Part shown: piece after piece, positions 43,401 through 47,663 of the stretch
How the letters are laid out: every line of letters begins with the position of its first letter
Position numbering within the stretch: position 1 is the first letter of the stretch
Source of the DNA: a plasmid
Direction: 5' to 3' (one strand)
Assembly: GCF_056712565.1 (NCBI RefSeq)
Contig: NZ_JBWXXM010000004.1
Length of the DNA: 64,000 nucleotides
Position numbers and translations under genes: made by a program
Notes under the pieces: model-generated
The model's input: the letters and a program-made list of their open reading frames with translations, nothing else
The model's database searches: none
What the model was told of the DNA's origin: nothing

Positions 43401-44432
43401 ATGTCCAATTTACTGACCGTACACCAAAATTTGCCTGCATTACCGGTCGATGCAACGAGTGATGAGGTTCGCAAGAACCTGATGGACATGTTCAGGGATC
43501 GCCAGGCGTTTTCTGAGCATACCTGGAAAATGCTTCTGTCCGTTTGCCGATCGTGGGCGGCATGGTGCAAGTTGAATAACCGGAAATGGTTTCCCGCAGA
43601 ACCTGAAGATGTTCGCGATTATCTTCTATATCTTCAGGCGCGCGGTCTGGCAGTAAAAACTATCCAGCAACATTTGGGCCAGCTAAACATGCTTCATCGT
43701 CGGTCCGGGCTGCCACGACCAAGTGACAGTAATGCTGTTTCACTGGTCATGCGACGGATCCGAAAAGAAAACGTTGATGCCGGTGAACGTGCAAAACAGG
43801 CACTGGCGTTCGAACGCACTGATTTCGACCAGGTTCGTTCACTCATGGAAAATAGCGATCGCTGCCAGGATATACGTAATCTGGCATTTCTGGGGATTGC
43901 TTATAACACCCTATTACGTATAGCCGAAATTGCCAGGATCAGGGTTAAAGATATCTCACGTACTGACGGTGGGAGAATGTTAATCCATATTGGCAGAACG
44001 AAAACGCTGGTTAGCACCGCAGGTGTAGAGAAGGCACTTAGCCTGGGGGTAACTAAACTGGTCGAGCGATGGATTTCTGTCTCTGGTGTGGCTGATGATC
44101 CGAATAACTACTTGTTTTGCCGTGTCAGAAAAAATGGTGTTGCCGCGCCATCTGCCACCAGCCAGCTATCAACTCGCGCCCTGGAAGGGATTTTTGAAGC
44201 AACTCATCGATTGATTTACGGCGCTAAGGATGACTCTGGTCAGAGATACCTGGCCTGGTCTGGACACAGTGCCCGTGTCGGAGCCGCGCGAGATATGGCC
44301 CGCGCCGGAGTTTCAATACCGGAGATCATGCAAGCTGGTGGCTGGACCAACGTAAATATTGTCATGAACTATATCCGTAACCTGGATAGTGAAACGGGGG
44401 CAATGGTGCGCCTGCTGGAAGATGGCGATTAG
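43401..44432 (+). CDS. cre: Cre tyrosine recombinase
   Basis: 343 aa MSNLLTVHQNLPALPVDATSDEVRKNLMDMFRDRQAFSEHTWKMLLSVCRSWAAWCKLNNRKWFPAEPEDVRDYLLYLQARGLAVKTIQQHLGQLNMLHRRSGLPRPSDSNAVSLVMRRIRKENVDAGERAKQALAFERTDFDQVRSLMENSDRCQDIRNLAFLGIAYNTLLRIAEIARIRVKDISRTDGGRMLIHIGRTKTLVSTAGVEKALSLGVTKLVERWISVSGVADDPNNYLFCRVRKNGVAAPSATSQLSTRALEGIFEATHRLIYGAKDDSGQRYLAWSGHSARVGAARDMARAGVSIPEIMQAGGWTNVNIVMNYIRNLDSETGAMVRLLEDGD; next to loxP. Confidence 0.97.
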   Translation: MSNLLTVHQNLPALPVDATSDEVRKNLMDMFRDRQAFSEHTWKMLLSVCRSWAAWCKLNNRKWFPAEPEDVRDYLLYLQARGLAVKTIQQHLGQLNMLHRRSGLPRPSDSNAVSLVMRRIRKENVDAGERAKQALAFERTDFDQVRSLMENSDRCQDIRNLAFLGIAYNTLLRIAEIARIRVKDISRTDGGRMLIHIGRTKTLVSTAGVEKALSLGVTKLVERWISVSGVADDPNNYLFCRVRKNGVAAPSATSQLSTRALEGIFEATHRLIYGAKDDSGQRYLAWSGHSARVGAARDMARAGVSIPEIMQAGGWTNVNIVMNYIRNLDSETGAMVRLLEDGD

Positions 44433-44449
44433 CCGTTCATTTGCGCTTG

Positions 44450-44466
44450 ATTGCTCTAATTATTTG
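44450..44466 (+). promoter_or_regulatory. C1-operator-like site
   Basis: ATTGCTCTAATTATTTG between cre and next ORF. Confidence 0.5.
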
Positions 44467-44482
44467 ATATTTATGGTGACGC

Positions 44483-44794
44483 ATGCGGAAGGATTTCAAA
44501 ATAGACGGAAAATATGTGGTGCTGTCTGTAAGCTCTCAAATTCAGTCACCATCTGTCATTGTCACCGTAAAGTTGAGCGATAGGATGCCTGATATCGACT
44601 CGATATCTGTTGCGTTCCCCGTTAAAAGCATGCGGAGTGCTGAACATTTTGTGATGAATGCAACGGAGGAGGAAGCGCGGCGCGGGCTTACTAGAGTGAT
44701 GGTGGAATTTGGCGAACTCCTGGGTAAGGTAAACAATGCCCTTTCAATCAGTTCAGCAAGATCCAAAGCGTTAACAGCTTCCATGATGAAATAA
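44483..44794 (+). CDS. hypothetical protein between cre and ref
   Basis: 103-aa ORF. Confidence 0.45.
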   Translation: MRKDFKIDGKYVVLSVSSQIQSPSVIVTVKLSDRMPDIDSISVAFPVKSMRSAEHFVMNATEEEARRGLTRVMVEFGELLGKVNNALSISSARSKALTASMMK

Positions 44795-44819
44795 AAAAAG
44801 CCTGGCAAGGAGCCAGGCT
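44793..44819 (-). terminator. hairpin with minus-strand T-run (terminator-like)
   Basis: AAAAAAAGCCTGGCAAGGAGCCAGGC on plus strand; stem then T-run when read on minus strand. Confidence 0.35.
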
Positions 44820-44915
44820 GCACAAAAGAGCGGGTTTGTATTCCGCATCCAATCAATCAAGAAGGAGTATAGCACACAGGTACTGAAGTGAAAAAATGTG
44901 ATTCGCGATTAACAA

Positions 44916-44932
44916 AATATCTGCCATTGCTC
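44916..44932 (+). promoter_or_regulatory. C1-operator-like site upstream of ref
   Basis: ATTGCTCTAATTGATTG. Confidence 0.55.
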
Positions 44933-44999
44933 TAATTGATTGCTATAATTAAGCCGCAGTTTTTGTCAACTACGAAGACGTTGCCATTACTTAACTCCT

Positions 45000-45026
45000 T
45001 GACATCATTGGCGGCCATTAGGCCGC
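45000..45026 (+). terminator. hairpin plus T9 tract immediately upstream of ref start
   Basis: GGCGGCCATTAGGCCGCC then TTTTTTTTT, 15 nt before the ref ATG. Confidence 0.45.
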
Positions 45027-45041
45027 CTTTTTTTTTGCCAT

Positions 45042-45602
45042 ATGAAAACAATCGAACAAAAACTTGAACAGCGCCGCGAGTGGCAGAAGGCAGCCAGAGA
45101 ACGAGCGATCGCTCGGCAACGGGAAAAGTTGGCTGACCCCGCCTGGCGAGAATCGCAATATCAGAAAATGCGGGATTCTATCGACCGCCGTATCGCTAAA
45201 CAGAAAGAGCGCCCACCAGCCAGCAAAACGCGGAAAAGTGCGGTAAAGATAAAATCTCGTGGCTTGAAGGGGCGAACATCGACAGCGGAGGAACGGAGCA
45301 TCGCCAATGCTCTTGGCGCTCTCCCCTGCATTGCCTGCTACATGCATGGAGTAATATCTGAAGAGGTATCTCTGCACCATATCTCCGGTCGTACCGCGCC
45401 GGGTTGTCACAAAAAGCAATTGCCCCTTTGTAGATGGCACCACCAGCATGCAGCACCGGCTGAAGTAAGAGAAAAATACCCCTGGCTGGTCCCTGTTCAT
45501 GCCGATGGTGTGGTTGGAGGCAAGAAAGAATTCACCTTGCTGAACAAGTCAGAGATGGAGTTGCTGGCTGACGCCTATGAGATGGCAAACATCATGCACT
45601 AA
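45042..45602 (+). CDS. ref: Ref recombination enhancement function (HNH endonuclease)
   Basis: 186 aa; HNH-like Cys/His cluster CIACYMHG..HHISGR..CHKKQLPLCRWHH. Confidence 0.85.
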   Translation: MKTIEQKLEQRREWQKAARERAIARQREKLADPAWRESQYQKMRDSIDRRIAKQKERPPASKTRKSAVKIKSRGLKGRTSTAEERSIANALGALPCIACYMHGVISEEVSLHHISGRTAPGCHKKQLPLCRWHHQHAAPAEVREKYPWLVPVHADGVVGGKKEFTLLNKSEMELLADAYEMANIMH

Positions 45603-45791
45603 TAAATATATTATTTTTAATCTGAAATAATTGACAACTGACAAGTGACTTCAGTCAGAATCATCACATGCCCGGTACGGATGGATCCCTTTTCAAATAT
45701 TCCATGGACGGCACAGTCTGAGTACCGGGCGCTACCTTCAGTTGTATTGCTAAGCCGCCGCTGGTGGCTTTTCTTTTTTGTAGGGGGCGCT

Positions 45792-46433
45792 ATGGATAAG
45801 AAAATATGCGTTGTTTCGATGAGCGTCGGCAAACCGGCGTCAATGACTGCTGCATGGATCAACAATGAGCTAATAATGGCTGAGCGGACCAGCTACCCTG
45901 AACGCCGCCGCGATATGGAACTCCAGCTGCTGCGCGAATTGCGAGAAAAAGAGGAAAAGGGTTTTATCGTGCTGGTGGAAGAGGAAAACAGCTTTATTAC
46001 TGGTCGAGTTGGCCAGCGTGTAAGGTTGCGCGATCCCTTCATGAACGGCAGGCCGGTACTAATTGAGGCAATGCAGATTTATAAGGAGCTGGAACGCCAG
46101 AAAGCAATCAAGTTACCGCGCAAGGAATCCGGCAAATACATTCTCCACCAAAGCATCTTCGATTCCGAACACGATAAAAAAGGCGATGAGTTTTTCAACA
46201 TCAACTGGAGCGAAATAACGACAGAGCATGTTCTGACGTTGTTATGCTGCTTCGCAACAGAATACAACAACGTGGTAAGCGCAGACTACATCAGGGCAAT
46301 GGCTGGAGAAGTTGAGGCCCGCCAAGAACCATCGTTACTAAGTCCACTGATTAACATAATTCTGGGCACCCAGATACTGGAACAAAAAAAAGTGCCGAAA
46401 GGGGTATTAACAGGCAAGCATAATTATTTTTAA
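45792..46433 (+). CDS. mat: Mat-like protein (particle maturation)
   Basis: 213 aa from ATG 45792 (G-rich RBS); position after ref as in P1. Confidence 0.55.
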   Translation: MDKKICVVSMSVGKPASMTAAWINNELIMAERTSYPERRRDMELQLLRELREKEEKGFIVLVEEENSFITGRVGQRVRLRDPFMNGRPVLIEAMQIYKELERQKAIKLPRKESGKYILHQSIFDSEHDKKGDEFFNINWSEITTEHVLTLLCCFATEYNNVVSADYIRAMAGEVEARQEPSLLSPLINIILGTQILEQKKVPKGVLTGKHNYF

Positions 46434-46526: not shown

Positions 46527-47663
46527 ATGAAAGCAATGGGGAATGAAGTTTATCAAAGTCAAAAATGCAAGTTGAAATATTCAAAATCTCAAATTGATAG
46601 GGCTGCTCAATTGATAAGGCACGGGTGTAGTGACGAAGAAAGGCAGCAATCTATTGAAATGATACAAAATTTCCGTGAGCTGCATCTTTATCCATTAATG
46701 CTCATGAAAAATCATTTAGCAAGAGCAGCTGCTAAGGTTGACAAGGACAAAAAGATTCTCGTTGCAAGAAGACTTAAGCGACTTTCTACCATAATAGATA
46801 AACTAGAGCGTCCTAGTCTTGATGGAGGCAGAACTAGCAATGCAATTAAATTAACACGGATGCAGGACGTTGGCGGATGTAGGGCCATTGTCAGAAACTT
46901 AGACCAGTTGATACAGCTAAAGGAACGTCTTTTAAAAAGCAAATCTGTTCATAGGATTGTTAAAGAGTATGATTATCTTACTCCCAAAGACAGCGGCTAT
47001 AGTGGAATCCACCTTGCATACAGTTGCTTCGATCAGAAAGAGGATCAATATCCGTGGCGAAAAACAAAGATTGAGATACAGTTAAGAACTCAATTGCAGC
47101 ATGCTTGGGCTACCAGCCTTGAAATAATTGATACCCTTGAAGGTATCAAGCTGAAAACTTCAAGTGAAGGGCATCCAGAATGGAGACGATTTTTCTATCT
47201 AGCCGGATGTCTTGTAGCGCACGACGAAAAAGCCTGCACTCTTGATGAGCTAGTTGTATCTCAGTATGAAGGCGAGCTTAAAGAGCTGGAACGGACTTTA
47301 TCTGTACGGAGGAAACTAAGCACATACACCATCGCCTTAAATTTAACTTCTGACGCGAATTTGATTAAGAAGTTGCCAAAAAATCATAAGGGGCATTACT
47401 TAGTAACAATGAGAAATGCAGAAAACAAGCCCAATACAAAAAACAAAAAAATGTTCCTAGTGTCTGTTCGCGCATTTAAAACAAAAGAAGCAGATGAAGC
47501 CCTTGAGGCCTTAAATAAAGACGATTCTAATCCTAATGTATTGATATCTGTTCTCGTTGCTACAGATAACATTAAGTCACTAAAAAAAGCCTACCCCAAC
47601 TATTTTGGCTCAACAAACCAGTTTACAAAATTCTTAGATAAGCATCTTCGTAACGAAGGATAG
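46527..47663 (+). CDS. RelA/SpoT-domain nucleotidyltransferase protein, candidate fused toxin-antitoxin (CapRel-like toxSAS)
   Basis: 378 aa, AT-rich codon usage; RelA/SpoT synthetase motifs RLKRLSTIIDKL, DVGGCRAIV, GYSGIHLAY, EIQLRTQLQHAW; about 130-aa C-terminal extension; occupies the res/mod position. Confidence 0.7.
   Translation: MKAMGNEVYQSQKCKLKYSKSQIDRAAQLIRHGCSDEERQQSIEMIQNFRELHLYPLMLMKNHLARAAAKVDKDKKILVARRLKRLSTIIDKLERPSLDGGRTSNAIKLTRMQDVGGCRAIVRNLDQLIQLKERLLKSKSVHRIVKEYDYLTPKDSGYSGIHLAYSCFDQKEDQYPWRKTKIEIQLRTQLQHAWATSLEIIDTLEGIKLKTSSEGHPEWRRFFYLAGCLVAHDEKACTLDELVVSQYEGELKELERTLSVRRKLSTYTIALNLTSDANLIKKLPKNHKGHYLVTMRNAENKPNTKNKKMFLVSVRAFKTKEADEALEALNKDDSNPNVLISVLVATDNIKSLKKAYPNYFGSTNQFTKFLDKHLRNEG

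Follow-up and report, generated by a model that had tools for sequence, protein, structure and literature searches.

A strong terminator-like hairpin between a C1-controlled promoter and the start codon of ref in a P1-like phage-plasmid

The ref gene of the plasmid described here begins directly after a sequence that has the form of a strong transcription terminator, which raises the question of what this element does for ref, and of how any transcript enters the gene. The first-pass annotation had taken the element for either an attenuator of ref or a terminator belonging to the unit upstream. From our analysis of the locus within the whole 64-kb stretch of DNA (the window), the hairpin and the run of nine T that follows it are very probably a strong plus-strand intrinsic terminator, which would act both as the end of the cre-c8 unit and as a leader terminator of ref (Table 1). 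The two alternatives are both physically true and mutually compatible, because the promoter P2ref lies upstream of the hairpin and no other plus-strand terminator separates the hairpin from cre-c8.

Table 1. Features of the ref locus, in window coordinates
Feature	Position	Strand	Evidence and remarks
cre	43401-44432	+	ORF list; P1 and RCS47 annotation
c8	44483-44794	+	Upstream gene; ORF list; P1 and RCS47 annotation
Promoter P2ref	44921-44949	+	CTGCCA, 17-nt spacer, TATAAT with upstream TG (extended -10); scan 10/12
C1 operator Oref, ATTGCTCTAATTGATTG	44926-44942	+	C1 consensus match; overlaps P2ref
Leader hairpin 1	44959-44979	+	8-bp A/U-rich stem; RNA folds; altered in some natural variants
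GUUGCCA, candidate antiterminator strand	44980-44986	+	Pairs with UGGCGGC (45009-45015); contains the P1ref -35
Predicted promoter P1ref, -35 TTGCCA	44981-44986	+	AF234172 annotation ('predicted')
TTGACA hexamer	44999-45004	+	Exact -35 match; its TG (45000-45001) is that of the P1ref extended -10 (TGaCATCAT)
Predicted promoter P1ref, -10 CATCAT	45003-45008	+	Scan 9/12 with TG; AF234172 'predicted'
Terminator stem-loop GGCGGCC-ATTA-GGCCGCC	45010-45027	+	Terminator scan; -16.2 kcal/mol; shuffles
T9 tract	45028-45036	+	Terminator U-tract; probable SD-less ribosome-binding region of ref as well
ref	45042-45602	+	RecA-dependent HNH nuclease, 186 aa; PDB 3PLW, Pfam PF16786

The ref locus and its P1 counterpart

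Sequence comparison identifies the stretch around ref as part of a P1-like phage-plasmid. The segment from 44400 to 45800, which covers cre, c8, ref and mat, shows 99.7% identity with phage JL22, 99.4% with RCS47 and 93.6% with P1, and the 200 bp upstream of ref (44860-45060) are 98% identical to both P1 (1895-2095) and RCS47. Searches with the ref product find the solved Ref structure in the PDB with an E-value of 8e-118, and the Pfam family RecA_dep_nuc with an E-value of 1e-49. Of 5426 complete E. coli genomes, 576 (approximately 10%) carry the exact ref leader, nearly always on P1-like plasmids.

The regulatory region corresponds closely to that of P1 (M23246; P2ref, Oref and P1ref in AF234172), in which the same locus has operator, -10 hexamer, hairpin and ATG in the same order and register; the P1 record AF234172 marks M23246 as identical to the homologous P1 stretch. 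Upstream of ref, the window differs from P1 by five base substitutions (at 44911, 44924-44925, 44951 and 44993), and its leader carries a T9 tract where P1 has T8. The hairpin in the ref leader is the element to which a 1988 report on P1 assigned the role of ref attenuator, and as such is already known: on the basis of deletion analysis in phage P1, Windle, Laufer and Hays (J Bacteriol 170:4881) reportedly concluded that ref is under 'attenuator-antiterminator control'.

The substitution at 44911 alters an H-NS motif, the plus-strand site at 44906-44912, which reads CGATTAA in the window and in RCS47 as against CGATAAA in P1. H-NS binds the P1 ref regulatory region, with CGATAAA as its motif (PMC4713147).

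Thermal induction of a c1.100 lysogen raises ref RNA 73-fold, the presence of ref lowers lysogenisation 40-fold, and Ref raises ciprofloxacin lethality in P1 lysogens (PMC4713147); a P1vir RNA-seq paper makes no mention of ref. Given these effects of Ref and the prevalence of the leader in E. coli, the tightness with which ref is silenced is of some practical relevance.

Anatomy and conservation of the hairpin

Read from 5′ to 3′, the TTGACA hexamer is followed by the stem-loop, the T9 tract, the pentamer GCCAT and the ref ATG. The hairpin and its T-run, which the first-pass annotation had placed before the ref start codon, are present in the sequence at 45010-45036 and were found independently by a terminator scan. 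The closeness to ref was also correctly seen, but the distance, given as 15 nt, is 14 nt when measured from the end of the stem to the ATG. According to the scan, all seven stem pairs are perfect G-C pairs and the loop has 4 nt, and the folding energy of the hairpin as RNA has a z-score of -3.55. The T9 tract begins at the first base 3′ of the stem on the plus strand; on the minus strand no T-run follows the stem, and the element therefore works in one direction only. A G/C-rich stem, a short loop and a U-tract directly 3′ of the stem are the sequence features of an intrinsic terminator. The anatomy, its conservation and the identity with the P1 ref region are observed directly; termination in vivo, the share of each promoter and the translational role of the U-tract are inferred.

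Because a generic terminator pattern was not enriched in the region (6 found versus 4.1 expected), a stringent definition was applied, which comprised at least seven perfect pairs, at least six of them G-C, a loop of 3-8 nt and at least seven consecutive T within 2 nt. Four sites of this kind are present in the 64-kb window, compared with none in 200 dinucleotide shuffles, and the site in the ref leader has the longest T-run of the four. The GenBank record of P1 has no terminator feature at the ref leader; this absence is uninformative, as the equally strong pmgS-pap terminator is also unannotated there.

Conservation was assessed in 81 readable sequences from 80 viral-contig loci plus P1, RCS47 and P7, with variability scored in an alignment of 59 unique P1-like sequences. 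In that alignment, the 5′ arm of the hairpin is invariant (0 of 7 sites variable), as is the P2ref -10 hexamer (0 of 6). The 3′ arm varies at 2 of 7 sites, both of them pair-preserving changes from C to T at the junction with the T-run, while the loop varies at 3 of its 4 sites (ATTA, ATCA or TAAA) and the flanking segments at approximately 30-80% of theirs. The 3′ arm reads GGCCGCC in 76 of the 81 sequences; in the other five, the last one or two C are replaced by T and G-U pairs are kept. The length of the T-run ranges from 7 to 10 in these relatives, with a mode of 8, and its distance from the AUG is 5-6 nt in every one of the 81 loci, the spacer being GCCAT, GACCAT or ACCTT. This pattern fits selection on the stem rather than on a sequence motif. 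As the stem is essentially invariant in the 81 close relatives and compensatory changes are absent, covariation gives no information.

Distant Ref homologues (46-56% identity, from E. marmotae, E. coli, Klebsiella, Pantoea and Vibrio) have no such hairpin before the start codon, and so the arrangement is confined to the P1/P7 lineage. On the Klebsiella plasmid CP052282 (locus L084, 1346-1962), the Ref homologue is split, being annotated as two ORFs 46 and 118 aa long, and is probably a frameshifted pseudogene. In two related contigs (L035 and L037), approximately 95-130 nt upstream of the ref ATG, the left half of the C1 operator has given way to an unrelated sequence, TTCCGTTTTCTGAGACGACCCC; this sequence resembles the inverted-repeat end of a mobile element, and the -10 hexamer, leader and hairpin of these loci are intact.

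Promoters and transcripts that meet the hairpin

The first-pass annotation had also pointed to an operator-like site upstream. This site, which lies outside the interval 44989-45041 given there, is a C1 operator, annotated as Oref in P1. The C1 operator consensus fits ATTGCTCTAATTGATTG at this position and is matched at 15 sites in the window, compared with 0.33 expected, and the homologues in P1 and P7 are annotated as the C1 operator that controls ref. The -10 hexamer of P2ref (TATAAT, 44944-44949) predicts a transcription start at approximately 44955-44958; P2ref is a feature of AF234172, whose note equates it with 'promoter 2 for ref' of M23246. The hairpin lies approximately 55 nt downstream of this start, between the operator-controlled promoter and the ref ATG, and its position is thus that of a leader terminator. 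As P2ref is the only operator-linked promoter and is located upstream of the hairpin, P2ref transcripts must cross it. A further C1-operator-like site, ATTGCTCTAATTATTTG, with three mismatches, is found between cre and c8 (44450-44466, plus strand); no operator is listed at the homologous position of the P1 record.

Transcripts also arrive from the genes upstream. Terminator scans found no other plus-strand intrinsic terminator between cre and c8 and position 45010, and the hairpin that follows c8 (44799-44819) has a T-run on the minus strand only. With no other plus-strand terminator in the way, the cre and c8 transcripts, which are made in lysogens, extend to 45010-45036.

The minus strand just past the c8 stop (44795-44894 of the window) carries a strong terminator of its own, AGCCTGGC-TCCTT-GCCAGGCT followed by T7, with an energy of -16.2 kcal/mol. 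Approximately 45 nt upstream of it is a minus-strand promoter-like site, TTTTCA and TATACT separated by 17 nt and accompanied by TG (44894..44866). Together, the two would yield an RNA of approximately 65 nt that is unannotated in P1, and for which Rfam returned only an sRNA-like match below threshold.

We favour a model where the terminator would stop cre-c8 transcripts made in lysogens from entering ref, an arrangement that would suit a lytic-cycle nuclease that is harmful to lysogeny. Once C1 repression is lifted, the same element would act as a leader terminator, or attenuator, and limit the amount of ref mRNA made from the C1-controlled P2ref, such that ref mRNA would represent the read-through fraction of P2ref transcripts. 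A further part of the ref mRNA may stem from P1ref, a weak predicted promoter; these transcripts would start inside the 5′ arm, and the hairpin could not form in them. In the read-through transcripts, the U9 tract beside the AUG would serve as the ribosome-binding region, in place of an SD.

Other starts closer to ref had been suggested, and these did not withstand inspection. The TTGACA hexamer was described as promoter-like, but at spacings of 15-19 nt it is followed by AGGCCG, GGCCGC, GCCGCC, CCGCCT and CGCCTT, all of them stem sequence; lacking a -10 partner, it is not a -35 element, and it overlaps the spacer and extended -10 of the predicted P1ref. A leaderless ref mRNA had likewise been proposed, and can be set aside since the 14 nt of T9 and GCCAT before the ATG leave no room for a -10. 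By sequence inspection, no separate promoter from which ref transcripts might start fits downstream of the hairpin. The sole possible bypass of the hairpin would be the P1ref start inside the 5′ arm.

Routes into ref and comparable leaders

The 73-fold induction of ref RNA implies that substantial transcription reaches ref after derepression. An increase of this size would be unexpected if the terminator were very efficient and unconditional, and points to appreciable read-through, to antitermination or to a contribution from P1ref. Incomplete termination, antitermination and P1ref initiation are three possible and mutually compatible routes to ref expression.

Attenuation by alternative RNA structures probably corresponds to what the 1988 P1 paper proposed, and the title of that paper by Windle et al. 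claims evidence for an antiterminator. On this account, an antiterminator formed by GUUGCCA and UGGCGGC, stabilised by some signal, would let P2ref transcripts into ref. The pairing is indeed what is predicted for a leader that ends with the loop and still lacks the 3′ arm: GUUGCCA (44980-44986) pairs with UGGCGGC (45009-45015), and the helix takes up six of the terminator's seven 5′-arm bases. Most natural variants, for which the gain lies between -5.5 and -7.7 kcal/mol, are predicted to adopt it too. However, the gain of -6.6 kcal/mol in the window is equalled or exceeded by 17% of shuffled upstream sequences, and the antiterminator state, at -13.8 kcal/mol, falls 8 kcal/mol short of the stability of the terminator state, at -21.8 kcal/mol. 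In several lineages (those with a T deletion at 44981, with U45009A, and the L044, L050 and L079 types), the helix is reduced to approximately -2 kcal/mol, and none of them has compensating changes. The helix is neither significant against shuffles nor conserved across natural variants. A second candidate, in which GCCGC (44953-44957) would pair with GCGGC (45011-45015), was set aside: it has only 5 bp, its upstream strand is no later than the P2ref start, and its sequence varies among relatives.

A regulated switch would also call for a sensing element, and neither the leader sequence nor Rfam revealed one, whether leader peptide or ligand- or tRNA-binding RNA. The ref leader contains no ATG, no GTG and no SD. 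We considered a TTG-initiated frame that runs through the hairpin, as a leader peptide or an N-terminal extension of Ref; it is in frame with ref at T8, as in P1, and out of frame at T9, as in the window. This frame was rejected because T-runs of 7-10 and the alternation of GCCAT and GACCAT shift its register, and because it has no SD. Rfam yielded no family at threshold for the leader, the sub-threshold matches being driven by terminator hairpins. A trans-acting protein may instead be the sensor. With a helix that is at chance level, unconserved and uncompensated, no leader peptide and no Rfam family, there is no solid sequence support for a regulated RNA switch, and we regard signal-dependent antitermination as somewhat unlikely.

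The classical leader-terminator attenuators are those of trp, pyrBI and his in E. coli. The ref leader is like them in that its terminator stands between the promoter and the first codon and in that pairing is possible between the 5′ arm and a segment upstream of it. It differs in having no leader peptide, known RNA-binding protein or ligand, and in that its alternative helix is weak, at chance level and unconserved.

If P1ref were the source of functional ref mRNA, the hairpin would be an insulator only. The implied start of P1ref, at approximately 45013-45017, falls inside the 5′ arm or the loop of the hairpin, and RNA that begins at 45015 is without significant structure (-3.7 kcal/mol, z = 0.22). 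The promoter is listed as predicted in the P1 record and was picked up by our scan (Table 1), its -10 is nearly invariant, and the published statement that the C1 site occludes 'one of the ref promoters' (PMC4713147) would accommodate a second one. Yet sites of P1ref quality are no commoner than chance, with 9 found versus 7.3 expected in shuffles, the -35 region is variable at 4 of 7 sites, and the conservation of the -10 is confounded by its adjacency to the hairpin. Furthermore, ref behaves as a gene under C1 control, whereas the C1 operator lies approximately 40 bp upstream of P1ref and does not overlap it. The chance-level promoter quality and the lack of operator overlap led us to rank P1ref below read-through from P2ref, and we consider it unlikely that functional ref mRNA starts within the hairpin while the hairpin merely insulates.

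Under the favoured model of read-through from P2ref, the transcript must still be translated. The ribosome-binding site of ref had been called poorly defined, and this description is borne out: the 20 nt before the AUG show no complementarity to the 3′ end of 16S rRNA (+1.9 kcal/mol), and this is the weakest value among the 46 window ORFs with 150 aa or more (median -4.8). A U9 tract located 5 nt from the AUG, with no SD, is the sequence signature of a U-rich, S1-dependent initiation region, and by analogy with such regions the U-run probably substitutes for the SD of ref. The leader of E. coli rnd, the gene for RNase D, is similar in having a terminator-like hairpin and a U-run directly before the start codon, but it retains an SD, which is absent from ref. 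The U-run of rnd is needed for translation, according to Zhang and Deutscher (1992) as cited in PMC2176067 and PMC5934652. U-rich tracts are known to enhance translation and to bind protein S1 and 30S subunits, rnd mRNA being an example (PMC5934652, PMC2176067).

That the hairpin and U-run are mainly an S1-dependent ribosome-loading site, with little termination in vivo, is quite unlikely: the missing SD, the constant distance between U-run and AUG, the rnd precedent and the normal SD (AAGAGG) of a distant, hairpin-less Ref homologue (L087) would all suit it, but a 7-bp all-G/C stem followed by nine U is canonical strong-terminator geometry, selection seems to act on the stem too and not on the U-run alone, and a translational role is compatible with termination and likelier as an added function than as the main one.

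The first plus-strand terminator after ref is a hairpin in the mat leader, AAGCCGCC-GCT-GGTGGCTT followed by TTCTTTTTT (window 45752-45779), which lies 13 nt before a strong SD (GGGGG) and the ATG at 45792. It is located downstream of the annotated Pmat/LPmat, in the same layout of promoter, hairpin and start codon as at ref. The P1 record places the mat start 111 nt earlier (window 45681), in which case the hairpin would fall inside the coding sequence. The start at 45792 is favoured on two grounds: the alignment with a Pantoea Mat homologue begins at M38, the methionine encoded at 45792, and differences in G-run and T-run length among relatives break the upstream frame.

A more general proposal would be that P1-like phages reuse a module, in which a lytic promoter in the 3′ untranslated end of the previous unit is combined with a strong terminator abutting the next start codon (45010-45036 for ref, 45752-45779 for mat). 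Such genes would then be expressed through a read-through mechanism or by initiation within the hairpin, and the U-tract of ref would double as an SD-independent ribosome-binding site, whose slippage-prone run of 7-10 T would tune both termination and translation. We put this forward as a speculation of low probability.

Downstream of mat, the gene content of the window differs from that of P1. The slot after mat is variable, with res/mod in P1 and lxc in RCS47, and in the window it contains a plus-strand ORF of 378 aa (46527-47663) with a RelA_SpoT nucleotidyltransferase domain (Pfam, E = 3e-12). We presume that this ORF resembles the CapRel-type fused toxin-antitoxin defence proteins of P1-like phages.
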